From Somniosus microcephalus (lineage: Eukaryota), in assembly GCA_052327205.1 (NCBI GenBank), contig CM126214.1:25668001-25732000 (forward strand): 64,000 bases of DNA, given 5' to 3'. Below, in pieces: positions 6,656 to 47,697 of this stretch (positions within the stretch are counted from its first letter, which is position 1; each line of letters opens with the position of its first letter). The position numbers and the translations under genes were made by a program. The notes under the pieces are model-generated. The model did not search any database and had not been told where the DNA came from. It saw only the letters and a program-made list of their open reading frames with translations.

Positions 6656-7802
6656 ACTCCTGAGCTCAGCTGTATGCCTAGTGGTGGCCCCCCCAAAGTG
6701 GGAAGTTATCGCAGAGCTGTTGTCATGTGGCATGGGAGCAAATTGGCAGAAAATGATTGTGATCTGGGAATATATAAATATATGGTGTTATTATTCACTG
6801 CAAAAGCAGATTGTTTGATATTTGGAGTGACATTAGCCTAACTTGATGCATTTTTTGCCTGCAAAATTGACCGTGACACACACATACATATTTTTGAGAT
6901 TTAATGGCTCATTCTAACTTCCAGCGGTGATGGAAAATAGGTGGTAGCAGATTGGCCACTTGTAATACACCCCGACAGATTTTCCATTCCATTGAAATGG
7001 GGATATGGCCTCCTTCGTCTGTGTTTGTCTTGTGATCTTGTGACCTACTTTCTTTCTTTGACTGAGAATATTCCAAAAGTGACTGGAAAGAGATTTACAG
7101 CAGATTATAAAACATGCATAAAACACAGGTGTTAAAGCGAATGTGTGAAACAATTTATATATAATCCCAATTGGGATCTATGCCAAGTGTTGCAGCATTT
7201 CTAATAGACAAGGTTTTTATTCATTTCCTTCTTCACAGAACTCCAGTGTTGCATCTTCAGATGTCTGCCATTGTCTGAAACAAATGAATATATTTTATTC
7301 CTTTTTCTCCATTTAATTGTAAGACTTTTTAAGGTGTCAGGTGATACTAAAATATACCGATTGCTAAAAATGTTTTAAAAAATTAAAAATCAAAATGGAT
7401 TCATTAGCGTGGTGTGTATAACACCAACATTTCTATATAACAAAGACTACAAAATTTGGTTTAAAAAAAGCCACTAAGCCATCTGTGGGTGAATATGTGC
7501 TCGTGCACCTGGTGTGTGCACTAGTATTAGGGCTGTCCACAATTTAATATCTTAAGCTGCATGGGGCCAATTGTACTGTCACTGCCTCTGTGATCATTAC
7601 AAAATCGATTCGACAGAATGGGAGAAATCAGAGTGTCTTCACTACCTAAGAATCCTGTGCATTTCAGAATTTAAAAAAAATGTTGAATGCTTTTAAAGAC
7701 GTATAATTATATTCAGTGGTTGCCTCAATAGGAACTCACATCTGTCTCTCTGCTACACAGAGTCTATAAAAACTGCCAGATTTGAGTCATTGGGCACATA
7801 TA

Positions 7803-9047: not shown

Positions 9048-9501
9048 TTTTAAAAATCATAAACAAAACAATTATAGGCTAAGTCCCTCTGACAGTTGTG
9101 AGTCCTTTAAGAAATATCAGACTTTGTATTGCTCTTACCATTTCTGTTTGCAAACCCGAGTTTGGCCAACTGCCATAATAACCGCCAAGGCAATAGCTTT
9201 GCAGATGATGAGTGGAAAAAAGTTTAACAGGTCATAGTTGAATGCTGGAAAAATAAGAAAATAGTAATGACGTAAAGGTGAAAAAATGATCGGTAAAGAC
9301 ATTTTAAATTTTGAGACTTAGCATGGTTTCAAGTTGTGATGAATGATGTCCAGTGTCATTTCTGCCTCCATAGATGGCATATTTTAAGGTAGAATCGGCA
9401 CAAATGGTTTAACCTCCCTTTCATCATGCCAACCAACTCTGGAGGGTGGGCGGGGAGTGCAATGCCTTACCCTGCTAGGCCTGCCAATCGAGAGTCCTGA
9501 T

Positions 9502-11207: not shown

Positions 11208-11528
11208 CATGAACTTGCACATTTATCGAACCCATTGCAATGATCTGTGATGACAAATATGTGGTAGCACAGCAGTAGTAAACGCCAGCATCTTCATTTT
11301 GGAGGTTGGAGAGAGTAAGTGTAAAATCATGTCTGTCTGCTGCCACAGTTTGGTTGCTGATGTTGCCTCTGTTTATTGACATCAACTGGCTACAGTTTTC
11401 ATTATCCTTTGTCCAAAATACTCTGAGTGTGTTATTCAAATGCTCATCAAATTTTGCAATACACTGAAGCTTTAGGGAGCCTCCTCTTAGTCCTCTCATT
11501 TTGGAATTGGGAATAACCAGCTTGAAAT
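11208..11528 (-). CDS. Ig domain 2 exon of the BTLA/CD160-like gene
   Basis: Phase 1-1 exon of 321 nt (ttaag|AT … CATG|gtgagt). DFKLVIPNSKMRGLRGGSLKLQC…VFWTKDNENC…FTLTLSNLQNEDAGVYYCCA…INVQVH, with canonical Ig Cys, Trp and DxGxYxC. Confidence 0.9.
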
Positions 11529-11779
11529 CTTAAGATTCAAAAATAAAACTATTTGTGATCATAAGATTAAATAAAATGTGCATTGTTTTGTGTCCGAGAA
11601 CAGGAGGTTATTAACAGGAACTAAGTATTGGAGAAAATACCAGCAATTATTGAATTTAACAACTTTTATTTCTGTTGTGCCTCTTGCATAGAAAATGTCT
11701 CAGTACTTGTTAGGGAAGAGGGAAGGAAAAGGGGAAAATAGAAGCTGGGTGGGAATGAAGCCAGTCAATTCAAAGGGAA

Positions 11780-12320
11780 TGGTTTAAGAGGGCGGAGGGA
11801 GGCGTCAAGATGGAGGGTTCTGGGGAAGCAGTTCCAGAAGTCAGGGAGAGTATGGCTGGAAGAATGGCTGCTGTTGCTGGAACAAAGATATTGGGAATGA
11901 GGATTAATCCAGTCAGAGGAGCTTAGGGTACGTGCAGGGACATTAAACTGGAGGAAATCACAAATGTGGGGTGGGGCAAAGCCATGAAGGATTTTAAAAT
12001 GAGAATGTGGATCTTCTAATCAGTCTGCTAGAGCACGAGAAGACAGCGGGACATTGCAAGGATGTTGGCGACCGGCGTGCAGGAAATCATTAGAGAGGGG
12101 ACATGGGAGGCAGTGATCTGGATAAGTTACAGTTAGTACAGGGTGGATGTTAGGAAGCTAGCAAAGAGAACACTGGAGCAGTCAAGCCTCAAGGTGATAA
12201 AGACCTCGATTAGGGGCTCAACAGTGCTAGGGGAGAGGCAGAGAACGAAGCAGGCAATGTTTGTGGTTATAGATCAGATGAGGTTAACAAACCTCAGCTC
12301 AAGCTTGAGCAGGATGCCAG
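11780..12320 (-). mobile_element. Degenerate L2 LINE
   Basis: Purine-rich plus strand matching the reverse complement of the other L2 3' regions in this window. Confidence 0.55.
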
Positions 12321-12359
12321 GGCTAATTAGGGTTAGCCCTTTAACAGTTTCCTGGCCCA

Positions 12360-13432
12360 AACCATCTCCTTTTCACCATTCCCCACCAGGACGGCCTGCG
12401 GGACCTCCGCTTCTTCCTTGAACAGAGGCCCAACTAGTCCCCATCCACCACCACCCTCCTCTGTCTGGCTGAACATGTTCTTACATTTAACAACTTCTCC
12501 TTTGACTCCACTCACTTCCTCCAAATAAAAGGTGTTGCTATGGGAACCTGTATGGGTACTAGCTATGCCTGCCTTTTTATGGGATATGTAGAACATTCTT
12601 TATTCCAGTCCTACTCATCCCCTCCCTCAACTCTTTTTCCGGTACATTGATGACTGTATTGGTACCACTTCCTGCTCTCACCCCAAACTGGAAAATTATC
12701 AACAACTTTGCTTCCATTTTCCACCCCTCCCTCCTCCCTCACCTTCACATGGTCCATCTCTGACTCTTTCCTACCCTTCTTCAATTTCTCTATCTCCTAT
12801 TTCTGGGGATAGGCTGTCAACGAATATCTACTATAAGCCCACCGACTCCCACAGCTACCTTGATGACTCTTCCTCCCACCCCGCTTCCTGTAAGGACTCT
12901 ATTCCTGCCTCCCAGTTTATCTGTCTCCGTCGCATCTGCTCGGATGGTGCCACCTTCCACACCAGTGCTTCTGATGTCCTTTTTCCTCAACTGAGGATTC
13001 CCCTCCACCGTGGTTGACATGGCCCTCGACCATGTCCATCTCATTTCCTGCACTTCTGCACTCACCCCTTCCCCTCCCTCCCAGACCCATGATAGGGTTT
13101 ACACCTCCTCTAGACTCATCTTTTGTTTCTTTACTTGTCCCATTGCCACCTGTTTCTGCCTTGCACCATCATCTCTTTTTGTCATTTAATCACTCCTGCC
13201 TTACACACTTTCACAGACCTCAATCTTTGTTCTTTCCTCCCCTCCCCCCTTTCTCTGCCTCTGTTTTTGCTTAAAAGCTATTACATTAACTTCTTCCAGT
13301 TCTGATGAAAGGTCATCGACCTGAAATGTTAATTGTTTCTCTCTCCACAGATGCTGCCTGACCTGCTGATTATTTCCAGCATTTTCTGTTTTTATTTCAG
13401 ATTTCCAGCATCCACAGTATTTTGCTTTTGTA
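12360..13432 (+). mobile_element. Penelope-like element: RT fragment, internally deleted, with 3' UTR
   Basis: FNNFSFDSTHFLQIKGVAMGT…FFRYIDDCIG…YYKPTDSHSYL…LRRICSD; 3' end carries a hammerhead core. Confidence 0.9.
13297..13335 (+). ncRNA. Minimal type I hammerhead ribozyme motif (Penelope-associated)
   Basis: CAGTT-CTGATGA-A-AGGTC(ATC)GACCT-GAAA-TGTT-AATTG; stem III has decayed from CG to TG. Confidence 0.65.
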
Positions 13433-14192
13433 TTCTAATTTATGTGTGACTCATCTATAACTTTGATAATGATGTCATAGGTTCATGAATGCTTACCAGT
13501 TACTGAATAAACTGTGATAATAGATTTAATTATCTTTTAAAGGGAATTGATTTTAAAGGGGAACTTCCTGCATTAACTGATCCAGATAATCATTATAAAC
13601 ATTAAAAGTGCTAAATCACTCCACATACTCAAACACAAATACGGGCATCTCAATTTGACTTTGTAAGGGTATCTCACATCTTAAACTAAATGAGTATATG
13701 ACCATTGCCTAGGTACAACATACACCATCTAAAAGCTGCCAATACTACACCCATCATATTCATTTCACAGATGCATCACATGTGATCTGAACTCCATTTC
13801 TAAAATAATGTACAGGAAATTAAGCCACATATATGACTGCTGTCAGATATTAGCTAAATGGAGAAATACAGGCTCTTGCATTGCCAACAAAGCTCTTAAA
13901 CATGGACACCTTTGTTCTGGTGGTTACATCGCAGATATGTGCAGGAGGCATACATGAGTCTCAGATATGGCTGAACTGAAAGCTATTAACGAAGGTTGTA
14001 TTGTACCGTATATTCTAGGTTGAAAATTGCAACAATAATTGGCAAGAGTTTAAAAGGAAATATTCAGGGAGTAGATTTGTAGCCTTGCACAATACCGTGT
14101 AATTTTTAAATACTATGCTGTATATTTAATACTATACATTTTAAAACTAGCTTAAAATTATAACTTGTTATGCCCAATGTTTTGACACTTAC

Positions 14193-14549
14193 CAATCACC
14201 AAAACTGTTATTATGTGACCCATCACAGTGCCTAGGCTGTAGCTGGGGAGCCTGCCCTGACACTGATAATGTCCACTGTGGCTAATGTGAGCAGGAGATA
14301 TCCGAAGCAAAGAAGTCATTGTACCAGGCCCATTACGTAGGATGTACGTGGTCCGATTGACATATTCATCCAGCTGAGCCAGCAACGTGCAACTTTTTGA
14401 TGTTACCTTACACCAATTCAATTCTGGTTCAGAGGAACTGTTCTCACAGTAGATAGCTTTGCACGAGAGAGAAAGCGTGCTGCCTTCCACAGCGTAGATT
14501 GTGGATTTTGAATAAGAGAGTTTTAGTTCACATCTGTTTTGATTCTGCC
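14193..14549 (-). CDS. Ig domain 1 exon of the BTLA/CD160-like gene
   Basis: Phase 1-1 exon of 357 nt (tttag|GG … ATTG|gtaagt). GQNQNRCELKL…LSLSCKAIYC…WCKVTSKSC…HSGHYQC…MGHIITVLVI, with six Cys in the BTLA arrangement. Confidence 0.9.
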
Positions 14550-14898
14550 CTAAAATGGAGGAGAAAAACATGAATAAAACTGACTGTATTTATTGGATAT
14601 TTTGTGAAATATAAATTATTGGGTGAAGGTTAATTAGTTGTAATATTTTACTATATACTGGTTAGATTTTTTCATTGGATAAATGTCAAGTAATGAGTTC
14701 TTTGAGGAAATAATGGAGCAAATTGATAAAGGAAATGCAGTGGATTGCTGTGCATATGGATTTTCAAAAGGCATTTGATAAAGTGAGGTTTGCTAATAGA
14801 ATTAACACATGGTATTAAAGGGAATGGGTAGCAAGGATAGAAAGTTGGCTAAAGGACAGAAAACAAAGAAGTGGTTAATGGATATTCTTAAGAGTGTG

Positions 14899-15423
14899 TG
14901 TAAATATGATCTCTTTTTTTACTTTCAGTATTAAGCTAGATTGCAGTTTAGTATTAAGTTTTGTTAGTGTATAATTTTATTTTACTCTTTAGAATGCATG
15001 AAAAGATGATGTTGAAACAGAAATTTCTTACAGTTAAAGCTGATATCTTCAAGGTCCATACAGTGAGTCATCATCTGCATGAACAGAAAAACATTGTGTC
15101 GAGACTGAGAGAGAGATAAGGGGAGTCACAAGGAACTGTGCATCTGGACAAATACGTGTTTTGGGCTTTTGTTAGCGTAGAGGCATTCACTAGGCGAAGA
15201 CGACAGTCATAGACAGGAAGAGGCAACTGGCATCCATAGTTATGACCCCTACCTAAATCAGACCAGGTAATATAATTTGCTCTGTTTTGTTAATTACTGC
15301 TTCGATGCTTGCATATATCGACCTTTGTTTCACTTCTTAAAATAAAATTATTACTGTAACCCAATGGTGTCGGCTCTAACCTATTGGACAAGTAAAAGAG
15401 GCCTAAAGGTAAGGTTTCTTACA
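14899..15423 (+). mobile_element. Probable LTR (solo or partial) nested in the CR1
   Basis: Begins TGTAA and ends TTACA, with AATAAA about 80 nt before the end; splits a contiguous CR1 motif. No TSD seen. Confidence 0.5.
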
Positions 15424-16357
15424 ACTGGTAGATGCAAACAATGGTGTCCCCCTGGGTCAGTGCTCTTTTCAACATATATGCATGATCTGGACTTGGGTAT
15501 CGTGGCACAATGAAAATATTTGCAGACAACACAAAAAGAGAGTGTGCGTTTGACCATGAAGCAACTTCAGAAAGACAGACGGGGTGGCACGTTGAGCAGA
15601 TAGAGCTCAAATGAAAATGAGAAATGGGAGGTGATATATTTTGGGAAGATGAGTAAGGAGATGAACTATACACTCAATTGCAAAACTTTAAAAGGAGTAG
15701 AGGAGCAGAAAGACTTAGATTTTCAGAAGCACAAATCTTTAAAAGTGGGAGAACAAGTTGCTGAAGCTTTGAAAAGGTATACAAGATCCTAGCTTTTATA
15801 GAAAGGGGTATAGAATACAAAAGCAAAGATGTAATGCCAAAAATATGCAAGTCGCTGGTTAGACTACATTTAGAATGTAATGTCCGGTTTTGGGCGCTTT
15901 ACTGATGTCAAGACCATGGATATGGTGCAGCAGAGTTTCATTAGAATGATACCAGGGATAAGAGTCTTTAGTTACGAAGGGAGACGAGAGAAACTGGGGC
16001 TCTTTTCAATAGTACAGAAAAAGGTCGAGAAGGTCTGCTGGTGGTAAAAATTATGCAAGGTTTTGATGAGATAAATAGGGAAAAATTAATTTCAAAGTTT
16101 GGCGAGTTGGTAATTAAAAGGGCATAAATTTAAGATCAGCACCAAAGGAAGAGGTTAGTAACAATTTGTTTTTAAACGCAGAAGTGTGTTAGGAAATGGA
16201 ATGTCCTTTAGAAGCAGTAGTGAAAGAGTCTATAGGATACATTGTTGAAATAGAAAATTTGAAGAGAGTATAGGGAAACGGAAAGGGATTGAACTAATTG
16301 TACAGATCTTAGAGAGCCAGTACAGCTGCAACTTAAAAATACATTTAAAAATATTAT

Positions 16358-16719
16358 TTTATGGGATGTGGGCGTCACTGGCAAGGCCAGCATTTATTGC
16401 CCATCCCTAATTGGCCTCGAAAAGGTGGTGGTGAGCCGTCTTCTTGAACCGCTGCAGTGCTGTTAGGGAGGGTGTTCCAGGATTTTGACCCAGCGATGAT
16501 GAAGGATTGTCAATATACTTCTAAGTCAGGATGGTGTGTAATTTGGAGGGGAACTTGGAGGTGGTGGTGTTCCCATGTGCCTGCTGCCCTTGTCCTTCTA
16601 GTTGGAAGAGGTCGTGGGTTTGGGAGGTGCTGCCGAAGAAGCCTTGGCGAGTTGCTGCAGTGCATCTTGTAGATGGTACACACTGCGGCCACCCAGTGGT
16701 GGAGGGAGTGAATGTTTAG
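16358..16719 (-). mobile_element. Non-LTR retrotransposon 3' end (family of 4654 and 35250)
   Basis: AAVCTIYKMHCSNSPRLLRQHLPNPRPLP. Confidence 0.85.
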
Positions 16720-16733
16720 ATGGCCTCCTTCTG

Positions 16734-17095
16734 ATCACAGAAATCACAGATCACAGAAACCCCACAGTGCAGATAGAGGCCATTTCGGCCCATCGAGCCT
16801 GCACCGACACATATCCCACCCGATCCCCGTAACCCCTACACCAACACATATCCCACCCTATCCCCGTAACCCCACGTATTTAATCCCCCCTAACACTAAG
16901 GGTCAATTTATCATAGCCAATCAACCTAACCCGCACATCTTTGGACTGTGGGAGGAAACCGGAGCGCCCGGAGAAAACCCACGCAAACACGGGGAGAATG
17001 TGCAAACTCCACACAGACAGTCACCCGAGGCCGGATTCGAACCCGGGTCCCTGGCGCTGTGAGGCAACAGTGCTAACCACTATGCCACCGTGCTG
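16734..17095 (-). mobile_element. HE1 (V-SINE) of elasmobranchs
   Basis: tRNA head GCACGGTGGCATAGTGGTTAGCACTG…GGTTCGAATCC, V domain GTGTGGAGTTTGCACATTCTCCCCGTG…GGGTTTTCTCCGGG…CCGGTTTCCTCCCACAGTCCAAAGA, and a CR1-like tail. Confidence 0.9.
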
Positions 17096-17578
17096 TAATA
17101 TTCTATGATTCTACAACTTAGTTCGGATACTTTAGTGGAACACAAGTGTTGATTCAACATTTTCATAAAAGTCGATTTATTTGTTATAAAAGCTTAGACT
17201 AATCACTATCATATTCAGAAAGAGGGGTGAACACAAAATTAATCAGTTGAAATATTTTCTATACACCAAAAAACACAAAATATGAGATAGCATAATCAAT
17301 TAGTTTTCATTAATCATTCACACAACATAATTCTACACACTTGTTTGAGTGCCACAAAACAAGGCCTTTACCATGTATTAGCAAAGATTATTCTAACATC
17401 AAACAGAAGAACAGAAGTTACAAATGTGGCGCTAATGCAAGCACGGACATGAAGGATTAAATGATCTCCTTCTGAGCAGAAATTTTTATGATTCTATAGT
17501 TTTGATAACCTATTTATAAAAATATCTTTCACACTGCTAGGTGTTAAAAAAAATTGACAATTGTAAAATTGTTCCCAC

Positions 17579-17663
17579 CTTGTACTGTGGCCATCCACCA
17601 AGTAATTAATAAAAATGCCCTTCCAAGAGGCACCGTTACACGTCTAGGGTGTTGACGGATCAT
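17579..17663 (-). CDS. Leader (signal peptide) exon of the BTLA/CD160-like gene
   Basis: ATG at 17663; MIRQHPRRVTVPLGRAFLLITWWMATVQ(G). Phase-1 donor AAG|gtggga matches the phase-1 Ig exon. Confidence 0.75.
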
Positions 17664-30661: not shown

Positions 30662-32311
30662 CTGCAAAAGTAAAGAGGAAGCATTTAGAAATGGTACTAT
30701 GCAATCAAGAAGCTTTCAATAAAAGGAAGAAAGGACCAATTTGTAAGGCAGTGTGAGAACGTCAATACAGCCACAAGAAGCACAACTTGAGCTCAGACTG
30801 AGAATGAAAAAAGCTCAAAATTTGTTTTACTAGGTCTCAAACCTTCCCAACAACTAGCCTCATCAGGAGTAAAGTTTATCTGCACTTACTCAATTTACCA
30901 TGACCTATCCCATACATTGGAATCATTGTGCCCGCTGATTCTTGCCATGCTCCAGTTTAAAGAACACTTAAAAAACATGAAGCAGGAATGGTGCGGAGTT
31001 CCTGCTGCTGTTCTCAGTAGCTGGCAAGGCTACATTTATTGCCCATCCTTGGGTTCCCCAAGGTGGTTGGGGGCACCTTCTGGAGAAGTAATTGTTTTTA
31101 CAACCAAGAAGCCGGCAAGGCTACTTCATTGGGCATTAAGAGTCAACTATGCAGTGGAACTGGAGTCACATATAGGCCAGGCCAGAAAGGAGTGGCAGGT
31201 TGCCTTCCCCGAAGGACTGTAGTGAACCAGTTGGGTTATATTAGCAGCTTACATGGAGATTTTTTCACCTGCTGTCAGTCCACAAATTAAAAGATTTACT
31301 GAAATTACAACTGGTCAGGGGTTGCGTGCCCTGTACCACAAGCACTAAATTACATTGCTGTATTTGCTGGCATACGCCAGTTAATACACATCATGCCTGC
31401 TTTTACTGGTCATAAGCTCAACAAGTTGTCAGGTTTATTTATATTATTGTTTATGTTGCGGTTGTGTCACAAGTACTACACAAGGAGCTAAACACATGAA
31501 AGACCCTGACCAAAGTTCAACGGTGCAAGTTCCCGCTTGTTCAGTGCTAAAGGTCTGTTGATTGAGAAAAGTCTCGTCAATTCCTGCAATTTAATCAGTT
31601 GTCCAATATATTAAAAACAAAACTTGCAACAGCTCTCAAACACTGAGGTTGCTGTGTACAAGAAACATTGGAGCCACTTTATTGCTGCAGACACTCCAAC
31701 CCAATATCATTACGATGTTGAGCAATTATTCCAGATACGAATACCAGGAATTAAACTGAAAAGATAGAACAAGGGGAAGAACAGGATGCTCCTATTGAAG
31801 GATTATGGTTTTACAGAAGCATAGCTTTACACAAATTAACAAGAACCACTAGCTGCTTTACTCATTTACCAGTAAAACTGAAGTAGCATGCCACCACATC
31901 ATACCGCCCACTACAGGAATTGAAGATCTAGGATGTGTGCACATTCAATTGCATAAAGTACTCTGCTGCAAATAACTGGAAACAGAATAAATGTACATCA
32001 TTTACCCAAGACCATCGAACAAACCGGGTGATGCAAAGTACCGCAGGTCTGTCTTTAGTAAGCTGCAACTAAATTGCTAGTACAGACTTCTAATGAAGGA
32101 TCTCACCTAAAATGTTAACCTGTCTTTCACTTCAGATGTTGATTGCACATTTGACTGTTTTCTATTCTGACTTCAGTGAGTTCATATTAACGGTATCATC
32201 ACCTCATGACTATATAATGAAGTATCATTCTTGTTTGAGCTGTTTTGGGATCCCCTGAAGTTTTCATAAAGCAGAACTTTCCCAGTAAAACAGAAGAATT
32301 TGAAAACAAAC

Positions 32312-32397
32312 CTATAACAAGGCGTTGTGATCATGTACGAAGTGCAAGTGAAGTGTAACTTAAAATCAAGTTTTTCATGAGAAGATCCATCATCTGT
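32312..32397 (-). CDS. AP3D1: AP3D1 exon
   Basis: TDDGSSHEKLDFKLHFTCTSYMITTPCY. Confidence 0.95.
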
Positions 32398-32484
32398 CTG
32401 GGGGAAAAAAATAGAAATATGAAAGACTGAATATAATGCAAAGAAAATACAGAAACAGAAAAACTTGCCACTGACTGAACTTAC

Positions 32485-32573
32485 TTTGATTATAAATGTA
32501 AGTGTTCCTTTCAGTTTCTGTGGCATGACGATGCTTTCCACAGTAAACACAAACCGAGCTTCATTTGAAACTT
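32485..32573 (-). CDS. AP3D1: AP3D1 exon (NAGNAG acceptor; may start at 32570)
   Basis: VSNEARFVFTVESIVMPQKLKGTLTFIIK|gtaagt. Confidence 0.93.
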
Positions 32574-33381
32574 CTTCAGAAACAAAATGCAATTCAATAG
32601 GTTAGTCTTCTTAGACATGCAACAGTTAAATATAATTCAACAGCAATCAGTTCAAGTAATTCTACTGGGCACACAGAAATATACAATGCCCAAATGGTTT
32701 CACAATTTCATCAGAACCCAAAGCTTGTGTTGCAGCCTTCCAGCATACACACAGTTCCACTGTTGTTTTGAGTTTATACAGATTGCTGTCCCTTTTCTCC
32801 TGTGGTGTGTGAACTCCTCCACGGACATGTCAGGGAACAAAGCAAGCATGGCAAAACCAAATGTTGACAGACCGTGTGGCTGAAGATAGTGCACTACCAC
32901 CAAAAGGAAGGTTACTGTTCATGTATGTTACATAGAGGCAGTGACACGAGAATAAGTGAATGATAGCAATTTGTCCATCACGGTGAAAAACTTATTTGAG
33001 CAAGTGTAAGAAAATGTACAACTTGGCGAGATATTGTAAAATGAAACCAGAAAATGAGAAATACATAGGTCAGTCAAAATCCATAAAGCACTAAGACCCT
33101 CCCCGGGAACCCGAAACGTTAACCTGCCTTTTCTCTCCACAGATGCTGACTGAGCGGTTTCTTATTTCCAGCACTTTAATTTCCAGCAACTGCAGTTTTT
33201 TTTTATTCCCCTTTGTAGTTGTACAATATTAAGTTTATTCTTCAGGCATTTAATTTGTGGTAAAGCTCAAGAAGTTTAAAACCAATTTCTAGAGCAATGC
33301 TCAAATAGTTAGGAGTTATCTCAGTGTAATCCTAGAAGCAAATAAAATTACTGATCATGCCATATCAATGAAGCGTCTTAC

Positions 33382-33571
33382 CTGGTGGAAGCTGGAAAGG
33401 AACCGCTATACCATCGTGTATGGAGGACCCTTCTGATCGGACCAGTTTAGTGTTGAGAGAGTCTAAAACATTGAACTCCATTGACTTGAGATAACCGCTA
33501 CTTTGGTTTTCAAAGATAACCGATACAACCACTTGACTTCCATCCTGAAGATTTCCTTGAATATCACACAT
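33382..33571 (-). CDS. AP3D1: AP3D1 exon (ear domain)
   Basis: MCDIQGNLQDGSQVVVSVIFENQSSGYLKSMEFNVLDSLN…VPFQLPP|gtaaga. Confidence 0.95.
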
Positions 33572-35249
33572 CTAGTAAACAGTTTAAAAAAAAATGAAAC
33601 ACGTTTATGTATTTAAATAATCATTTTACACTAAAAAAAGCATTCAATACACTAGTCAAATTCCCATGGCATTGCACACGGGGAATCAAGACCAAGTATA
33701 GTATGCAGCTCAAGGAGGAACAATGGGAGGGGCAAAGGAGAGAAAATAAGACAGGACTGGATGGCGGAAAGACAAGGCAGCAAACATTCTTAGCCACAGG
33801 GGTTGGGGTGGTTCAGCTGTCACTGCTAAGCCTGTCTTTTCTTGACAGGTTTTGGGGGGGGGGGGGGAGGGAGGTGGAGAAAAGGCATTGGTGGCCTTTC
33901 AGATTAGTGGTGGGAATTTCACATAAGCTTCATTCCTCTCCCCAGCTCAGACTGTGTCACATGGTGTTGATCATGTGGTTTTAAGTTAAGTTGTGGCGAA
34001 TTGCATCGGGTTTATTGAACTACTAGGGGAGCAACTTTGTGCTGTTGGGGGTGGGTTACGAAAATGAAATCACTGGACTTCCCCCACTCAATGGTGATGG
34101 GCAAAAGTGGTTTTCCATTCTAATTAGGCCTCCGACTTTGTCTTTTGGAGTCGAGTTTCCTGCATTTCCAGGGGATCTAGCTTGCCTGTTAATGCTGGTA
34201 ACGATTGAGGTTCCACTAGTCGAGCCTGTAGCACTTTCCATCGTTTGGAAGTTTTAAAGGTATGGGGCGGAGGAGGGCGGAGAAAGGGATGCTGAATATG
34301 ATGCCGTTTAAAATTCCAGTAATACTTTTGGAGATTGCTTTTTCAGGTGATTAGTATCGAGGGGTTGCTGTACTGGCAGGTTGCTTAAGTGTTTCTTCAG
34401 ACTGTCAATCTTACTGGAACAGACTGACTGTAGAAAACTGGATATACCACAGCACTCTTGAAAATACTGTGTCTTTATTATGGAGCTATATGGGAAGTTT
34501 CGCTGCCAAAACCAAATGCTAGGGGAGTGCTTTGCACCCATCACAGGACGGGCATTTTTAGTAGCAAATGCTTATCATGGCACCACCTACAGGCACAACT
34601 GGTACTGCAAGCAACTGCTGGCACTTACAAAAAAATACACAAGGTGAAGAACTAAATATGAATTTATTTATCAAATTAAGAGTATACAAAGCTCCCTTTC
34701 TAAAACATTGTTGATTTCCCTGAACAAACATCTTCAGTTATTGGTGAAACATGCTGGGAGGAGAAGAGAAAAAAATCAGGAGTGGATGACTAAGGGCCTG
34801 TTTTCTTATGCTATGCTGTTCAGGAACGATCCTTTTGCCTGCTATTCTCATACTCCAATCATCAAGGACTCAGTCTTTGATGAAATTATTTTTCTCTGCT
34901 ACGGCTCCTTCTCAATGTGTGGCCTTCTACTGCTTGATATAGAATGACAGACATGCGAGTACATCCCCACTTGATGTTCTCCAGGTCTATGAATCTTGCA
35001 ATCAGTCTGTTCCAGTAAGGTACCTATCTGATATCAATAGATTTTTGGATATTAAGGAAACCAAGGGATATGGAGATATTGTACCTCAACTCCACCTTCC
35101 CGCACTATCAGCATGATCGTATTGAATGGGGGAAGCAGGCTCGAAGGGCCGAATGGCCTGCTCCTATTTCTTATGTTCTTAGGACATGTTTCAGTTGGTT
35201 TATACACCTCCCTACAGTTGGTACACTAATCAATTGTACATTTAAAAAA

Positions 35250-35925
35250 AATTTGTATATGGGATGTGGACGTCACTGGCATTTATTGCCCATCCCTAAT
35301 TGCCCTTGAGAAGGTGGTGGTGAGCCGCTTTCTTGAACCGCTGCAGTCAGTGTGAAGGTACTTCCACAGTGCTGTTAAGGAGAGTGTTCCAGGATTTTGA
35401 CCCAGCGACAATGACGCATCGGTGCAATACTTCTAAGTCAGGATGGTGTGTGACTTGGAGGTGTTCCCATGAGTCTGCTGCCCTTGTCCTTCTAGGTGGA
35501 AGAGGTCGCGGGTTTGGGAGGTGCTGCTGAAGAAGCCTTGGCGAGTTGCTGCACTGCATTTTGTAGATGGTACACACTGCAGACAAGGTACGCTGGTGGT
35601 GGAGGGAGTGAATGTTTAAGGTGGTTGATGGGGTGCCAATCAAGCGGGCTGCTTTGTCCTGGATGGTGTCGAGCTTCTTGAGTGTTGTTGGAGCTGCACT
35701 CATCCAGGCAAGTGGAGAGTATTCCATCACACTCCTGACTTGTGCCTTGTAGTCAGTGGAAAGGCTTTGGGGAGTCAGGAGGTGAGACACTCACTGCAGA
35801 ATACCCAGCCTCTGACCTGCTCTTGTTGCCACAGTATTTATGTGGCTGGTCCAGTTAAGTTTCTGGTCAATGGTGACCCTCCCCAGGATGTTGATGGTGG
35901 GGGATTTGCCGATGGTAATGCTGTT
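35250..35925 (-). mobile_element. Non-LTR retrotransposon RT C-terminus and 3' end
   Basis: YKAQVRSVMEYSPLAWMSAAPTTLKKLDTIQDKAARLIG. Confidence 0.85.
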
Positions 35926-36316
35926 GTTTGCAAATAGATGGTCACATCCGCTTGATCTATAATTACCAGTGTGACCCTAACCTGTTGTACCATTGTATTA
36001 GTGTATCACAATCTTACATATTTGTGTTGTAAACTGAGAATTACAGAAACATCTGTATTAAAAAAAAAAAAATCTGCTAGCTACAACTGTATGGAATCTG
36101 ATCACAGATGTGTAGTACAAGCCATACCCAAGACCATATAGTTTTCCACCTCGAGGAAGGTGCAAGAAATGGAAACAGGTATGAATGGGGATTAAATAAC
36201 GCAGGAAAAATTGAAGAACAAATATTCTGGAGCTATTTAAAAAATGCAATGCTTCATAAAAATTGTAACTTACATAAAAACTGTAATAATTTATACTGAA
36301 GTATTATGGTACTCAC

Positions 36317-36364
36317 CATTTTAATATAGGAATTTTCTGCCAGAAGGTAGTAGCTGGACATTGG
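36317..36364 (-). CDS. AP3D1: AP3D1 exon
   Basis: PMSSYYLLAENSYIKM; 48 nt, cag|…|gtgagt. Confidence 0.95.
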
Positions 36365-36399
36365 CTGTAAAATATTAAAAACATATGAATATAAAAAAA

Positions 36400-37020
36400 G
36401 ACAAATAGGAAATGACCCACTGATCCATCCAGCTTATCCAACACAGTTGTGATGCATCCAGTTGGAGCCATGTAATCTCCTGGGAGGAGCAAAAAGCACA
36501 GGCCAATTTGGCAGGGGGTGGGGGCGGTGGAAAAAGAGAAATAGCAAAATTCCTCTCCAATCGCCTTAGGCGATTGAAACTATTCCAGGAGGTCAGTGAG
36601 ACCCTGCAGGATACCTATTTCTTGTACATGAACCCTGCCCCAACCAAAAACAGGCCCAGCTATCACTTGAAGGAATACAGCAAATAATCATTCCTGGCAC
36701 GAGCTGGCAATCTATTCCACTGTTCTGTGGGAAAAGAACAGCTTAACATCCAACCTAGCTCTGTCCTTACATAACTGGTATAAGCATGACCCCTGGTCCT
36801 CCCTAACCTATCCAGTTGAAATAATAGGCCTACATAAACAAAGCTAGTCCCTTCATTATTTTATACATCTCAATCTAATTACCCATATGTCTGCACTTCT
36901 CTAAAATATAGAGACCCAGCTCATTGGGCCTATCTGGGAAACTGGTATTTTAAACTGGGAATTATCTTACAGCCCTTCTCTGGACCCTTTCTAAAGCTTC
37001 AATAACCCCCATCATGTGAG
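36400..37020 (-). mobile_element. Degenerate CR1-type LINE 3' region
   Basis: Minus strand contains LERVQRR- and RTRGH-like motifs. Confidence 0.55.
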
Positions 37021-37277
37021 CTTTTCAGAAACACTTTACACTTAATTCTTGAGTTAGATTTGTCGCAGTATTTCTGGGAACACAGGATTATATAAAATGG
37101 CCAAATATTGAAGCATGTTCAGAACAAAACATTCAACCAAGACATGTGTGTTTGAAATCTCGTTGCTATACGTATTAAAGATTAGTCTTCAGTGGGAAGC
37201 TTTTCAAATTGTGACTGGTTGTAAAGATAGTTCACCTTTTTCTTGGGTTAGGTTTGCTAGATTTAAACTGTCAACTA

Positions 37278-37594
37278 CAGGAAACTTTTTTTTAATCTGG
37301 CACCGACGGGACGCCGGTTCATCAAAAATTCCGGATAACCGAAAGCTATAGTAAAAGATACGGAGTGGAGAGCTCCGTATAAAGCAACACACCCTGTTGC
37401 TTAGCAACAGGTTCAGAACAATGGCCACAAGTTCCAAGCGTCTCTGTAGCTTAGCAACAGCTGCAGCCACACCCTTGCACAGCAACAGATCGAGGAAGGC
37501 AAGTAATAAAACTTACTTGAACCTACTCCTGAATTTTGCCTGTTAACCGAGATTTCCGGTTATTTAGGTGTCGGTAAATCAAAAAAGTTTCCTA
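37278..37594. mobile_element. Tc1/mariner (Tigger-like) MITE, copy 2
   Basis: TA-flanked CAGGAAACTTTTT … AAAAAAGTTTCCT; reverse-oriented homolog of 23539-23853. Confidence 0.75.
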
Positions 37595-38123
37595 TACTGT
37601 ATATTCTTTCACATGTCCCATGCATATACATATTTGCTGGCTTTTTAATTCAAGCATTAAATAGGCAGAAAAATCGTTAGTAGGCCAGACTTACCAATGG
37701 CCATTAAAGAATGCCAGAGAACAAGTTACCCTCCCACCCCTCACCTGTAGCTGGTGTGTGGCTCAGACAGACTCAATGGGCAGGAAAGGGAGGGAAAAAA
37801 GGGGAACGCCTCAAATAAAAATTTAAACTTAAAAAATTAGCTTTTGAACCTGAAGGTTACTGGCAATATTTAATACACAATGCTGCTCGACTTAATTAAA
37901 TGATTTCTCATTAGGGTCTGCAAATTTAAACATTTTGAAGCGGTTTCTCATCTATCACATTATCTTACAGAAAATAAGTGCATCAAAGGACCAGCAATAA
38001 AAGCACAACATAAATATCCACAATTTTTATTCAATAGCATTTATTTTGAAACAGTTCGCTCTGTATAAAAAGGACCACCATCACCCTGAATCTCAATACC
38101 TGCTAGTGTACAAATGAACATAC

Positions 38124-38264
38124 CGGTAAGGGCTCATCGTCCAAGCTGCCGTTCTGAACAGACTCTGGAGCCTCTTCGTCACTGTGGTGTTTCTTTTTCT
38201 TTGATTTCTTTTCTTCTTTTGACTTGTCTTTCTTATGTTTCTTCTTCTTGTGTTTTGACGACTT
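38124..38264 (-). CDS. AP3D1: AP3D1 exon (hinge)
   Basis: KSSKHKKKKHKK…EEAPESVQNGSLDDEPLP|gtatgt. Confidence 0.92.
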
Positions 38265-39599
38265 CTAATGCAGCAGTGGCACAGCAATCAGAAAATCTTA
38301 TTACAGGCCCCGCTACTTAAAAAGGTCTGTTTAACACGTTATATGCTCATGCTCAAGCAAAAAGCACTAACGTCAATTTCTATAGTGGCTGGTTATAGTG
38401 TCTTAAGTGCTCAGTTTAGTTTAGGCAGAAACAGAAATGCTGTCTTTTTTATTCAATATGATGCCCTCCAAGAAATGCAAAAAGCAATTCTTTCAGCAAT
38501 TAAGTTCAGTCTCTTTATTTGCATCATGCTCTGCAAATTGTAGCTGGCATAATTAGCACAATGCGGATTCAGCCTGGAAATGTGCGGTTTCTTTAATTAT
38601 GCTGTCTGCTCCAAGCACTTAACAGTGGTTCTCGAGTCAAAACAGAAAGCTCTGGCAGCTGCGGCAACATCTAGTTCAAGACTTTAAATGCGCTTCAGGC
38701 AATAACATCTTTATTGAAAGTGGTGATCGCCTGCCATAAACATTAACACTGACCCTGCAACTACACTGAATATCAGTGGTCAGCATCTGAACTGTGCGGT
38801 TTGATGTCAGAAACTCTGTCCCGAGATTATAAACTGATTGCAGATTAGAATTAATGGGCAAGAGGAGCACAAGCATTGCCTGATGTGAGTTTTAGATAAA
38901 CTATTTATTGCTCCCTGAAAGACAGAATCTGTTCCAGGAATAAAGTTTGGGAGAAATTCACAGACTGTGTCAAGTTTGTTTAACTTGAGTCTATCTCCTG
39001 ACCAGACAGCCCGGAAACAATTTAGATGAGGTGTCCCAAAGCTGGGCGATTCGAACACACTCGCAGTCCCTTATAAGTATATTTCAAATATGTATTTCTT
39101 TCCCATTATACTGGCCATCAACGGGCAAATCACGTTCGCATGAACGCGCCTGCTATAAGTGGTGGGGATTGTACTAAAGTGCCATTCAATTTGGGCTTGT
39201 GTTTTGATGTGCACTTTATAACCAACGAGAATAATAAAATTCCTGTTGGTGGCACTGTTGAGTTAATAGACATCACTGCTTAGCTACACCACTAATTGAA
39301 CTTAATACAACTGCAGTCCCTATTGTATTGTAGCCCTGGGTCTTATTTATTTACATTTGTACACTTCTCACAAATTTGCGACGTGCACATACAAACAACA
39401 TTTTGGCATACCAAATATTTTGAGGCATATATTACTTAAATATATTGGAATATCCAACACAACTTGGTACCACAATTAAGATGGAATACAAAAAGGGATA
39501 TGAACCTTTGAAGAGAGGACTTTTCTTAAATTCTAATCAAATTGTTTCTGATCCCCATATTCTGATACACAAATTAGCCTTTTACTAATTTACATGCCC

Positions 39600-41440
39600 T
39601 AGCCATGAACCCACATTTTTCTCTAGTTTCTATTCTATCTCCCCTCAAGTGTTCTCCGAGCTTATCTTGTCCACGAGATCCATTTCCCGCTCCTTTGTCC
39701 CTATTTCCACTAAGCGAATCACCTAACTTCCGTTCCCGACACCCATACTAGCTGACATTGTAAATGGCACTCTGTTCCCTCAGGTACAGTCCCTCTCCCC
39801 TTTTTTAAATCTACACGATCACCCCCCACCTCAAAGAATGAATCCTCAACCCCTCTGTCTTTGCAAACTACCACCATCTCCAACCTCCCTTTCCTCTTCA
39901 AAGTGCTCAAATGTGTCGTCACTTCCCAAATCTGTACCCATCTTTCCTGCAACTCCCTGTTTAAATCTCTCCAAGAAAGCTTTTCACCCCTGCCACAGCA
40001 TTGAAAAGATCCAAACCAAAGCCACAGGTGTCTCCTGTGACTATGCTGCATTATCCATGATGGATTTGCCAAAATGATGCATTTAAGGGGCGGTTAGATA
40101 AGCATGAGTGAGAAGGGAATAGAGGGTTACGCTGATAGAGTTAGAGGAGGCTTGAGTGGAGCATAAACGCCGGCATGGACTGGTTGGGCCAAATGGCCTG
40201 TTTCTGTGCTGTATATCCTATGTAATCCTTCTTACCCTCCAGGACCTCTTCCGTTGCCCAGCTCAGCAGGAATGCCCTTGCATGGTCCCAGTTAGCGAAC
40301 TGATCGGAGCCAGAGTAGCTCTGTCACCTCCAGACTTGACTATTCCAATGCACTCCTGGTCGACTTTCCACCTTCCATTCTCTGTAAACTTCAGCTCATC
40401 TAAAACTCTGTTGCCCTACCCTGCACCAAGTCCCACTCATCCATCACCCTTGTCCTCGCTGACCTACTTTGGAGAGGTACCACCAACGCTGCCTCAGCAA
40501 GATCCTGCAAATCCACTGGCAGGATAGGCGCACCATCAGTGTTCTCGCTCAGGCCAACAACCCCAGCATCGAAGCTTTGACTACGCTCATCAGCTCCGAT
40601 GGGCGGGCCACACCGCCCGCATGCCTGATACGAGACTCCCAAAACAAGCGCTCTACTTGGAGCTCCGACACGGCAGGAGAGCCTCAGGTGGGCAAAGGAA
40701 ATGCTTCAGACACCCTCAAAGCCTCCTTGAAAAAGTGCAACATCCCCTCGGACACCTGGGAATCCCTGGCCCAAGACCTCTCAAAGTGGAGGAGAAGCAT
40801 CCGGGAAGGCGCGGAACACAGTCTCTTCACCGGGAGCAAGCGGAAGCCAAGCGCAAACAGTGGAAGGAGCACACGTCAACCCAAGAACCCCACCCACCCA
40901 CCCCTTCAACCACTGTCTGCCCCACCTGTGACAGAGACTATAGGTCCCACATTGGACTCAGTCACCTGAGAACTCATTTTTAATGTGGAAGCAAGTCATC
41001 CTCGGTTCCGAGGGACTGCCCAAGAGAGAGACAGACTTTGGGTCCCGGTCCTCCAATATAACATTTTCATCCTCCTGTGAAATCCCTTCATGGCCCCATC
41101 TCCAGAACCTTCTACAGCAGTACAAACCCCTGCCCTCCCACCCCATGACTCACTGTTCCTCTGACTCTGGCCATTTGTTCCTGCCCCCACTCCTTTTGTC
41201 CCGCCACTGCTGGCCATGCCTTCAGCCATTGAGGCCCTATGCTCGGAAATTCCCTCCCTAAACCCTTCTGTCTCCCCACCCCTCTCCTCCTTAAAGACCT
41301 TCCTTAAAACCCACCTGTTTGACTAAACCTTTGTGGTCACCCCTCCTATTATCTGCTCCTTTGATTCAGTGTTAATTTTCTGATTACAACACCATGAAGC
41401 ACCTTGGGATGTTTTTCTATATACAGTAAATGCAAGCTGT
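39600..41440 (+). mobile_element. L2 LINE remnant interrupted by a CR1 tail (about 40070-40228) and an RTE element
   Basis: L2 motifs (ANYxxISNLPFLxKVL; SRLDYSNALL) and an L2 tail at about 41430. Confidence 0.7.
40469..41025 (+). mobile_element. RTE (BovB-like) LINE 3' end
   Basis: ERYHQRCLSKILQIHWQDR…RMPDTRLPKQALY.ELRHG…DTLKASLKKCNI…CPTCDR…HLRTH zinc finger. Confidence 0.9.
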
Positions 41441-42117
41441 GTGTGCTTGTTTGATTACCCAGCAAACATCAATGGGTTATGATTGTGCTTAAGCCCTTAA
41501 TTTTCTAAATAAAACTAGGGTGCCATTATAATAATGACCAACATGTACTTACTTGCAAATTATCTTCAGTAATAGTTTATACTTCAGAATATTTAACTAA
41601 CATTTTTTGAAATACATGATCATAGCAATTCAAGGGTTGTGCTGCTGAATGTAACGTTGTATGTGCACGGAATTCTAATTGTGCTTTAAGTAGAACAAGA
41701 TACTTTAACAGTCACTTAGTAACGTACAGAAGAGTGTATGCCTTAAGCAACAACTGTTTTCAAGCAAACAATTTTCAAAAGGAACTGAAGATAACAGGAA
41801 ACAACTCCAAGGTGAAAAACCAACAAAGGTTAAATTATTTAAGTGGCAATTATTAAAGGACAGAATGACAAATCCCAACATTACCAAAAGGATCTCGGGG
41901 AAGTGATTTGCGAAGTTTGATAAACTGGACGAAGTACTTCACTTACTGCAGCAAGCATACTTGAGTGAGCAGCAACAATTCCCTCGTTGAAATTTTGCGC
42001 TTGCTGAATTAAAAAAATTTTTTTTTTTTTTTTTTTTTAAACACGTGTGCTTTAGCACAAAATTGCTTTACGCAACAGCGAGTTGCCAAATCAGTCTCCA
42101 TAGAAATTGGTACTTAC

Positions 42118-42195
42118 TGCATCCTCTTCCTTATCTTCTTTTTCTTTTAATGTCTCTTCTGGTTCAGAAGCCACTTCATTTCTAAGTGGTTCTGG
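42118..42195 (-). CDS. AP3D1: AP3D1 hinge exon
   Basis: PEPLRNEVASEPEETLKEKEDKEEDA; 78 nt, phase 0-0, ttttgcag|…|gtaagt. Confidence 0.8.
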
Positions 42196-42956
42196 CTGCA
42201 AAAAGACATCAAAACTTTTCAACTGCTGAATGTCATCTGCACGACAACAAAACAATTTTCTTCACTTAATTTCAGTTCTCACCGGAAGTCAGCCAGCACA
42301 CCTGCAAACTTATACCAGCATTGCAATTATGATATTAATGTCAGCACAGGACTAAGTTGTAAAAGTATTTGTTCTCAGATTGTGGGCAAGGCTATATCTG
42401 TTGCCCATTCCTAGGTGCCCCTAGTATTGCTTACTAGGCTGGCAGGTTCCTTTCCTTGAAGGACATAAGTAAACCATTTGGGTTCTTACAACAACCCAAC
42501 AGCTTTCATGGTAATTTTGTCTATCATTAGATTAGTTACTAGATATATTGAATTCAATTTCACAACGAGTCATGGTGGGATTTAAACTCTCAACCTCAGA
42601 GCAGCTAGTTCAGTGCCATGACTAGTACACCACTGCACTCTGTGCCAGAAATGTTAATTCTAGAGTATAAATCCTCCACTTGCATGTAGTTATACAATTT
42701 TAAAGGAGCACAAGGAAGCCCACTGTATTAAACAATTTAGACACAAGTACTTCAAACAGCATAGAACAATCATAAAGACCAGCAAACATCTCCAAAACAC
42801 TGGTAGTAAAGTTCTTGGTTATATTTTTGATTTTCAACTATTAACTATACAAATACATACACAAATAATTCAAATGCATCTTTACCCTCATATTTCAAAA
42901 AATACAAGAAATAGGCAAGTTGACATTCTTGTTCTCTCAAATGATTTTTGTATAAT

Positions 42957-43458
42957 ATTTGCCATAGAGGGAGTGCAACGAAGGTTCACGAGATTGATTC
43001 CTGGGATGGTGGGGACTGTCGTTATGAGAAGAGATTGAGTAAACTAGGCCTGTATTCTCTTGAATTCAGAAGAATGAGGGGGGGATCTCATTGAAGCATA
43101 CAAAGTTATTACAGGGCTTGATAGGGTGAATGCTGGGAGACGGTTTCCCTTGGCTGGGGAGCCTAGAACCAGGGGCCACAGCCTCAGGATAAAGGGAAGG
43201 CCATTCAGGACTGAGATGAGAAGACATTTCTTCACAGAGGTTGGTGAATCTTTGGAATTCTCTACCCCAGAGGGCTGTGGAGGCTCAATCATTGGGTATA
43301 TTCAAAACAGAAGTCGACAGATTTCTGACTAGCAAGGGCATCAAAAGGATATGGCAATAGGGCCAGTGAATGGAGTGGAGGCAGGAGATCAGCCATGATC
43401 TCATTGAATGGCGGAGCAGGTTTGAAGGGCCTACTCCTGCTCCTATTTATGTTCTTAT
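42957..43458 (+). mobile_element. CR1 LINE 3' end
   Basis: AIEGVQRRFTRLIPG…RTRGHSLRIKGRPFRTEMR; same subfamily as 1-272. Confidence 0.9.
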
Positions 43459-43645
43459 AACATATCAATACAGACCCCACACACACTATTTCCAGTCTGA
43501 AAACTAATATAAATAGGAACTAGCTACCTATGTTTGAGAAATTTGTTGTAAGCTGCATGGAATCCTTTGCAAACCATCCAGCTTAGGGAGCACGATCTAA
43601 AATGAATAGCTGGTTAATGGGTGAATGGAACCCAAGTATACTGAC

Positions 43646-43699
43646 CTGTGATTTGCTTTGTACTGGATCATTAGACAGCCAGAAGTCCAAATCTGATCC
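43646..43699 (-). CDS. AP3D1: AP3D1 hinge exon (DLDFWLS motif)
   Basis: GSDLDFWLSNDPVQSKSQ; 54 nt, phase 0-0. DLDFWLS is a conserved delta-adaptin motif. Confidence 0.9.
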
Positions 43700-43809
43700 C
43701 TTAACAGGAAAAAGCAGAAAAAAATTCCAGCAAGATTGTAATCAAGATCTCTCATTTTGGAACAGATTAAAAATTACATAGATAGATGTAGAGAACACAA
43801 AAGACAAAC

Positions 43810-45145
43810 ATAGCGGGGCACTTTGCTGCAAATCCCTGTTTGAATCTCTTCAATCAGGTTTCCGTCTCTGCCGCAGCATTAAAACGGCCCTAATCAAATT
43901 CATAAATAACCTGCTCTGTGACTGTGGACGTGATTCCATTTCCCTCCTCGACCCATCTGTATCCTGACAGAGTCGACAACATCATCCTGCACCAACATCG
44001 CTCTTCTGTTGTCCAGCTCAGTGGAACTGCCCTCGCTCAATTCTACTCTTGCCTATCTAATCGTAGCCAGAGCATCTCCAGCAACGGCTTTTTCCCCTCT
44101 GCACCATTACCTCTGGAGTTGCCCAAGGATCTATCCTTGACCCTCACCTCTTCCTCATGTAAATGCTGCCCCTTGGAGACATTACAGACATGGGGTCAGC
44201 TTCCATGTGTACGCCAATGACACCCAGCTCGCCCTTTCCACCACCACTTCTCTAACCTCTCTGATTTGAGAGGCTTCTTGCCAGACATCCAGTCTTGCAA
44301 TTTCCACCAGCTAAACATTGGTGACCAAAGCCACAGTCTTTGACCCCCGCCACAAACTCCGTACCTTCACCGCTGGTTTCATCCCCTTCCAAAGCATCTG
44401 TCTCAGGCTGGAGCAGACTGTTTGCAACATTGGCATCCTATAAGACTGGAGCTGAATTTGACACTATATCCTCTCCATTACACTGACTGCCTACTTCCAC
44501 CTCCATATCATCACCTGGCTCTAGCCCTACCTCAGCCCATCTGCTGCAGAAACCCTCATGTATGCCTTTGTTACTTCCACACTCAACCATTCCAATTCTC
44601 TCCTGGCCAGCCTCCCAGCCTCAAACTTACATAAACTTTAGCTCATCCAAAGCTCTGTTGCTAGTATCCGATCCTGCACAGAGTCCCACTTACCCATCAC
44701 TACTGCCCTTGCAGATCACTGGTTCCAGGTCCCCCAGTGCCTCAAATTTTAAATTCTCATTCTCTTTGGATTCTGTCAGGGGCCTTTTTGTATTCTCCGC
44801 AAACTCCAGCAGAACCACATACCACTCCCCAAACTCTCCCTTCCTGACTATGGCCTCGTGCCTCTCCTCTCCATTTGCCCCATCATTGGCAGCCGTGCCT
44901 GAAACCACCTAGGACCTACACTTGGGAATTCTCTCCCTGTACCTCTCTGCCTAATAGGTTGTTCAAAGATGTGGGTTTTAAGGAGGGTCTTAACAAAGGA
45001 GAGTGAGTTGAAGAGGTTTAGGCAGGGAATTCCAGAGCACAGACAACTGAAGGCAGGGCAGCCAATGGTGGGATAAGGAGGAGAGGCAATGCACAAGAGG
45101 CCAGAATTGGAGGAACAAAGAGTTCGGAGGGTTGTCAGGCTGAAG
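43810..45145. mobile_element. L2 LINE remnants (+ strand RT, then a - strand 3' end)
   Basis: QSGFR…TALIK…GVAQGSIL…FHVYANDTQL-like motifs. Confidence 0.7.
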
Positions 45146-45455
45146 GATTCATATGCTGCCAGGGTAACTTTTACAATCACCTGCATGAGCAGACCAGCCT
45201 TCAAATTTCATGCCTCATCCAAAAGATGGGACCTCCAACAGTACTGCATTGAAGTGTCAGCCTAGTATATGTGCCAAAATGTTGGAGTAGGACATGAACC
45301 TTCTGGATCAGAGGGGAGAGCTCCAATAGAAAACCTAGCTGATAATCAAGTTCACCCAATGAAGGAAGAAGTTATTATGTTTAATATTTACTTGCTTAAT
45401 AAAAACAGATTCAAAGGAAGGCTATTTTTTGTCAAATGTACAGCACAGTACTCAC

Positions 45456-45587
45456 CTCTCCTGTGGATTTTTCATTTGCTTCCTCTTTGGATGTCGGTGT
45501 AATAATTTCTTCTTTAGGGGCAGCATGTTCATTCTCTGCATTTTCGTAAGACTTCTTGTGTTTTTTGCTAACTTTCTCTCTACCTTT
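45456..45587 (-). CDS. AP3D1: AP3D1 hinge exon
   Basis: KGREKVSKKHKKSYENAENEHAAPKEEIITPTSKEEANEKSTGE; 132 nt, phase 0-0, acag|…GAG|gtgagt. Confidence 0.8.
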
Positions 45588-46198: not shown

Positions 46199-46332
46199 CA
46201 ATGTTCCCTTTCATTTTTTTTGGGTGCGTGGTCCATTCAAAATACCACGCATGCATGGTTTTTCCCATTTAAAAGCCGGTGAGCCGGCTGTACAGGAGCT
46301 CCAGGGTGCTGCGCGGCTTAAAGAGAACAATG
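46199..46332. mobile_element. Small hAT (Charlie-like) MITE
   Basis: TIRs CAATGTTCCCT / AGAGAACAATG; 8-bp TSD GTTGAGTA / GTTCAGTA. Confidence 0.7.

Positions 46333-47694: not shown

Positions 47695-47697
<3 letters not shown>

Follow-up and report, generated by a model that had tools for sequence, protein, structure and literature searches.

A conserved BTLA-family gene of sharks and rays with a transmembrane lysine: a candidate activating receptor beside AP3D1 in Somniosus microcephalus

Background

What kind of receptor is encoded next to AP3D1 in the shark Somniosus microcephalus? The stretch of DNA analysed here, called the window in the following, comprises 64,000 nucleotides (contig CM126214.1, positions 25668001-25732000; the contig is abbreviated C13). 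Its initial annotation had described a gene with a leader and two immunoglobulin (Ig) exons, which combined signatures of BTLA and CD160 and might thus represent an ancient checkpoint molecule. As currently understood, BTLA is one inhibitory receptor; a conserved relative with an activating-type anchor would, if true, place opposing members of this checkpoint family early in the history of jawed vertebrates. In the following, we show that the gene is a real, conserved and as yet unnamed variant of the BTLA family. We lean towards reading it as a BTLA paralogue that likely acts as an activating receptor by means of an adaptor carrying an ITAM, the tyrosine-based activation motif of immunoreceptors.

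Results

Located downstream of AP3D1, the gene is encoded by the minus strand; its model is based on the genomic sequence and on computed RefSeq relatives, not on transcripts, and a look-up of RNA data listed none for exon 2. The proposed leader and the two Ig exons were confirmed by a splice check, which found AG/GT ends and phase-1 junctions for exons 1 to 3. Exon 1 (17579..17663), which is 64-76% identical to three of four shark RefSeq relatives according to tblastn, encodes the signal peptide with 28 codons plus one base and ends with a phase-1 GT donor. Exon 2 (14193..14549) encodes the first Ig domain (D1) and exon 3 (11208..11528) the second one (D2); Pfam assigns D1 to V-set/Ig_3 and D2 to V-set (E 2.5e-10). 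However, the gene does not end at position 11208, as had been assumed, because a transmembrane (TM) exon and a last exon had been missed. Both surfaced when the relatives were aligned to the window by means of tblastn, at about 9245-9141 and 7276-7220. A splice test placed exon 4 at 9139..9244; it is 83% identical to the model from Heptranchias and encodes a TM helix that has a Cys-Lys pair at its centre (mean Kyte-Doolittle value of 2.38 for a window of 19 residues), which is followed by a short basic tail. The start of exon 5 was located at 7217..7274, based on 79% tblastn identity to the Heptranchias tail and a test of splice phase. In Heptranchias, the corresponding stretch codes for a longer tail without a tyrosine motif. 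In the gene studied here, a stop codon arises where the last two bases of exon 4 are joined to the first one of exon 5, and the resulting five-exon model with canonical AG/GT ends therefore specifies a protein of 289 amino acids, whose tail of eight residues after the TM helix contains no tyrosine. The models Heterodontus X1 and Cetorhinus share this C-terminal ending. The first polyA-type signal is found at position 6905.

Judged by its sequence, D1 is a domain of the BTLA family. The BTLA-like arrangement of six cysteines noticed by the initial annotation holds, as each of them is invariant in all nine aligned D1 sequences; the same nine sequences keep the histidine that matches BTLA H127. 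The best single-domain matches of D1 in the PDB are BTLA entries (20-21 bits, E 0.003-0.006), and CD160 is weaker (16 bits, E 0.06-0.08); the multi-domain protein pIgR ranks above BTLA, but exclusively through the summation of weak matches. A profile of six BTLA-like domains, from which this gene had been excluded, assigned 49-60 bits to the nine D1 sequences and at most 14 bits to 16 control V domains. A tree built from 41 domains unites D1 with the six other BTLA-like domains of the genome in one branch, which has support values of 100/99. This tree contains no bony-vertebrate sequence; its controls are 15 of 30 fetched V-set loci and one CD28H-like exon. Further D1-type exons of the genome were found on contigs C10 and C20. 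Searching with a profile of shark BTLA-like domains gave BTLA with 48-51 bits followed by CD160 with 31-34 bits, both on D1-type columns. At the level of profiles, the kinship of BTLA and CD160 is thus real, and this part of the initial interpretation is supported; the suggestions that D2 is a CD160-type domain and that this gene links the two families are not supported.

A search with D1 detected four uncharacterised RefSeq models of sharks with 66-77% identity. After a cluster look-up and a profile search, the set comprised 12 unnamed models from nine species (six sharks and three rays), which agrees with the earlier suggestion of an undescribed two-Ig shark member of the family. A lysine is located in the TM helix of 11 models and in all nine species; the twelfth model lacks the TM exon. 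Two models are variants: one from Heterodontus has no TM exon, and one from the whale shark skips D2. The tails consist of 7-35 residues, reaching 35 in the rays, and contain at most one juxtamembrane tyrosine, but no ITIM (the tyrosine-based inhibitory motif of immunoreceptors), no ITSM (the corresponding switch motif) and no YxN motif. The Cys-Lys pair has been retained in all nine species while the tail varies freely. A basic TM residue together with the absence of tyrosine motifs is the combination that distinguishes adaptor-coupled activating Ig receptors, and this combination is found here. Word-based searches identified relatives in elasmobranchs only (four among 107 candidates and nine among 3308), and searches of this kind cannot show absence from bony fish or chimaeras. 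A third search, which was limited to proteins of 516-2000 amino acids, gave three matches among 7998 scored sequences, one of which is a fused white shark model described below.

D2 may be either a CD28H-like or a degenerate BTLA-like domain: hhalign scores tie, the domain falls outside the BTLA branch, and its fold matches are generic. Four cysteines are present in all ten D2 sequences, which without exception possess a threonine at the first cysteine position of the short pair known from BTLA and from the CD160 motif quoted in the initial annotation; a histidine at the G0 position is missing. The sole other match of D2 in the genome is an exon with an E-I-P-P-P motif (32 bits), and the D2 profile also ranks this exon first among outsiders (36.7 bits). 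D2 itself has no EIP motif, but contains a W-T-K-D stretch similar to the CD28H type. The hhalign score was 54.8 for this exon and 53.5 for the BTLA-like profile, which is a tie; conversely, the BTLA-like profile assigned 21-34 bits to D2, 8 bits to the EIPPP exon and at most 14 bits to other V domains. In the tree, D2 is located outside the branch of D1 and BTLA, and a clade of D2 and the CD28H-like exon was not rejected (p value of the approximately unbiased test, p-AU, 0.149). Compared with the CD160 candidate on C10, whose identity is positional, D2 reached an hhalign score of 33.6, a value surpassed by several unrelated V domains, with a maximum of 41.7. The structure model of D2 had a predicted local distance difference test (pLDDT) value of 87.5; its input alignment was rich in generic V domains, and its fold matches were ties among generic Ig domains. 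Among these ties, BTLA ranked 17th in one search and 27th in another (Z 12.3, root mean square deviation 2.8, 100 aligned residues). CD160 was not among the fold matches listed, nor was it among the best 60 of 4606 and the best 60 of 1551 matches in two further searches. The 63 N-terminal residues of D2 gave one match, neurofascin, with E 1.2, and atlas searches led to generic V-set clusters only. The model of the full-length protein had a pLDDT value of 38, and its fold search was uninformative. The motifs quoted in favour of a CD160 character of D2 are present, but profile, hhalign and PDB searches gave no specific support for it.

The presence of a separate BTLA with ITIM and ITSM, which the initial annotation had asked to be checked, was established for contig C10. 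At 6.48-6.53 Mb, this contig harbors a BTLA gene with an uncharged TM helix and a last exon that encodes YEN, ITIM and ITSM motifs. Its Ig exon (6527913-6528242) scores 35.8 bits against human BTLA, compared with 20.7 bits for D1. A second exon of the family (C10:6649317-6649658) is located upstream on the same strand; it is followed by a PDZK1-type gene in the opposite orientation and by GPR89, such that a single block (C10:6484200-6810000) contains the ITIM/ITSM BTLA, this candidate for CD160, the PDZK1-type gene and GPR89. The human order is GPR89A, PDZK1, CD160 and RNF115 according to an excerpt of PMC5518118; shark BTLA thus resides beside a CD160 candidate at the human CD160 locus. The identity of the candidate is positional, because a single-sequence search with it matched BTLA (22-23 bits) and did not find CD160 at E 0.01. 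A TM or GPI (glycosylphosphatidylinositol) exon of the candidate was not found. Family searches of the genome gave no match for POLR3C, the RNF115-type zinc ribbon and DAP10; as these searches had no working control, they show no absence. The tandem of BTLA and the CD160 candidate bears on the question whether HVEM is shared by descent. Within the same region, C10:6505416-6539270 and 6564081-6597929 are 33.9 kb duplicates with 99.85% identity beside a gap of 500 N; the duplicate, which contains a second set of BTLA Ig and TM exons, is probably a haplotype duplicate of the assembly.

Additional loci belong to the wider family. A BTLA-like gene at C20:59387554-59394018 comprises a tandem of two BTLA-type Ig exons, of which the second contains a TAG in frame, as well as a TM exon with an arginine; it is a possible second activating member. 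At C20:59310000-59351400, a further BTLA-like gene, which has one Ig domain and an uncharged TM helix, lies directly upstream of a TAS1R-like gene. In the white shark, the model P0013 fuses these two genes, which is probably an annotation error. The similarity of the TM exon of the window gene to those of the paralogues on C20 and C10 did not exceed that of shuffled sequences (193, 169 and 651 of 2000). A V exon with EIPPP and GxG motifs at C2:29446953-29447195 belongs to a CD28H/CD28HL-type gene. Two adaptor exons of the zeta/gamma type with a TM aspartate were found at C14:86659861 and C40:10607082; these are probably CD3-zeta and an FcR-gamma-like gene.

The neighbourhood to AP3D1 was correctly recognised. 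Exons of this gene occupy 32185..60475 upstream of and outside the gene studied here, likewise on the minus strand, and PF06375 was matched at 51955-52212 (E 8e-16); the other exon-like frames of AP3D1 were read by eye and are without a relevant Pfam match. About 54 kb beyond the start of the window, near 25.61 Mb of C13 on the plus strand (6582-8450 of the fetched stretch), there are exons which we take to be REXO1 and which lie tail to tail with the window gene; Pfam and PDB searches with these exons returned no match. Human REXO1 and AP3D1 are both located in 19p13.3. By eye, remnants of reverse transcriptases of the LINE (long interspersed nuclear element) type were noticed in introns and intergenic regions of the window (10088-10708, 12592-13017, 19079-19606, 25286-26815 and 56292-59260).

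Discussion

The gene encodes, according to the model, a type I membrane protein whose outer domain is of the BTLA family and precedes another Ig domain; its TM helix has a central lysine, and a tyrosine motif is missing. As an activating receptor, it would use this lysine to pair with an acidic residue in an adaptor of the DAP12 or zeta/gamma type, in analogy to SIRP-beta, with D1 meeting the ligand and D2 serving as a spacer. A central TM lysine fits DAP12 best. The gene may have originated as a dispersed duplicate of the common ancestor of BTLA and CD160. A checkpoint role, as envisaged initially, is doubtful for this gene, because it combines the lack of an inhibitory motif with a TM lysine of the activating type. 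An HVEM-type ligand is possible. Of the BTLA contact residues considered below, D1 keeps Leu38 and His127, has conservative changes at positions 35, 42 and 74, and has lost the equivalent of Arg114.

Several observations weigh against an activating BTLA paralogue. Every relative is a computed RefSeq model, and there is almost no stalk between D2 and the TM helix. D1 is only about 30% identical to shark BTLA, which is encoded on another contig, and classical paired receptors are usually close and clustered. Due to the low identity and the different contigs, a paired receptor in the strict sense is disfavoured. Among the nine scored BTLA residues that contact UL144 or HVEM (excerpts of bioRxiv 10.1101/591883 and PMC8666650), D1 is identical at only two, but the C10 BTLA is identical at no more than three (Arg42, Arg114 and His127), such that this count does not discriminate. 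In sharks, a genome survey of older date detected no homologue of FcR-gamma (excerpt of PMC4016189); two exons of the zeta/gamma type are nevertheless present in the genome studied here.

Which other explanations might account for these findings? The protein might not signal at all, but act as a decoy or pure ligand: the BTLA-like domain that it displays or sheds would either compete for or trigger a TNF receptor of the HVEM type on the opposite cell, and trafficking or dimerisation would then account for the lysine. The tail of just eight residues, the Heterodontus model without TM exon, the whale shark model without D2 and the invariant counterpart of H127 fit this idea, as does the occurrence of CD160 in GPI-anchored, TM and soluble forms (excerpt of bioRxiv 10.64898/2026.10.19.760050). 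Yet the constancy of the Cys-Lys pair next to a variable tail is at odds with it, and the 35-residue tails of the rays speak against a GPI signal; we regard a decoy as unlikely, although it is the strongest competitor. Slightly less probable still is a hybrid generated by exon shuffling, in which a BTLA-type exon was placed ahead of a CD28H-like Ig exon of unrelated origin together with its anchor, and D1 alone would belong to the BTLA family. The scores linking D2 to the EIPPP exon, whose motif is of the CD28H type (according to an excerpt of PMC11599192, which names EIP as a hallmark of CD28H), and the position of D2 in the tree argue for such an origin. Conversely, the EIP motif is missing from D2 and a YxN tail from the gene; moreover, the BTLA-like profile scores D2 above the EIPPP exon and other V domains, and hhalign does not separate the two candidates. 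As the hybrid concerns the origin of the gene, it is compatible with an activating mechanism.

More doubtful is a tandem that preserves the common ancestor of BTLA and CD160, with D2 as the CD160-type domain. With the quoted CD160 motif, D2 does have in common the stretch K-x5-C-S and the ending YxCCA, and the BTLA-like profile scores it above control V domains. However, the best CD160 stretch falls on D1-type columns, several unrelated V domains score higher with D2 than does the shark gene at the CD160 position, the first cysteine of the quoted pair is missing from all ten D2 sequences, and the gene is not found at the PDZK1-GPR89 locus, which is already occupied by BTLA and the CD160 candidate. 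Finally, a simple BTLA orthologue whose ITIM/ITSM exons had escaped notice, an alternative raised initially, deserves hardly any credence. It would explain the six-cysteine layout and the ranking of BTLA as best single-domain match of D1, but the reading frame stops eight residues past the TM helix, none of the 12 related models has an ITIM/ITSM tail, and a better BTLA with all tail motifs exists on C10. Hidden exons of this kind are refuted at the level of the gene model; with two Ig domains and without an ITIM/ITSM tail, the gene is not the orthologue of BTLA.

Combining the preferred reading, an adaptor-coupled activating paralogue, with the other loci leads to a more far-reaching and distinctly tentative scenario. 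Sharks and rays would have kept an activating BTLA since before their split, and it would oppose the BTLA with ITIM and ITSM on a common ligand of the HVEM type. The family, with four or more loci of which the gene represents one branch, would go back to a tandem of BTLA and CD160 at the PDZK1-GPR89 locus, and the checkpoint would have begun as a system of paired receptors, which was reduced in mammals to BTLA and CD160.

Comparison with known receptors

A report by Bernard et al. (2007), whose title speaks of "multiple BTLAs", may describe similar forms in fish. Such "multiple BTLAs" in fish are cited in excerpts of PMC12151841 and PMC11599192, and an excerpt of PMC13262535 classes BTLA and CD160 as mammal-specific. 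We found no paper on the window gene or on a lysine-anchored relative of BTLA, but the supplements of PMC11599192 may list relevant shark sequences. As for CD28H and CD28H-like 1-3, the resemblance is that the best other match of D2 in the genome is a CD28H-type exon; in contrast to these proteins, as characterised in part of PMC11599192, the shark gene has two Ig domains, neither EIP motif nor tyrosine tail, and none of the named synteny markers. SIRP-beta1/2 combine a single TM lysine, through which DAP12 is recruited, with the absence of tyrosine sites and an inhibitory relative within the family (excerpt of PMC10729450). The shark gene is alike in these features of sequence, but SIRP belongs to an unrelated Ig family; here, the use of an adaptor is predicted, and the inhibitory relative shares about 30% identity with the gene, to which it is not linked.

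CD160 (PDB 6NG9, 6NG3) shares with the shark gene the lack of an inhibitory tail and is detectable by the shark BTLA-type profile. It differs in that the match is mediated by D1-type columns rather than by D2, and that it is a single-Ig protein with mainly a GPI anchor. Read directly from the sequence, the shark protein has two Ig domains and, after a hydrophobic stretch, basic residues; the tails of relatives reach up to 35 amino acids. Moreover, the PDZK1-GPR89 locus on C10 holds a different gene, and the window gene resides on C13 beside AP3D1. A TM isoform of CD160, which has a lysine, is reportedly activating. BTLA (PDB 2AW2, 1XAU, 6NYP) deviates from the shark gene by its single Ig domain; unlike BTLA, the latter possesses the TM lysine, no YxN, ITIM or ITSM motif and no equivalent of Arg114. 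Nevertheless, both are type I membrane proteins encoded by a leader followed by a phase-1 Ig exon, and D1 shares with BTLA the six-cysteine layout, the histidine of the G0 strand and Leu38.

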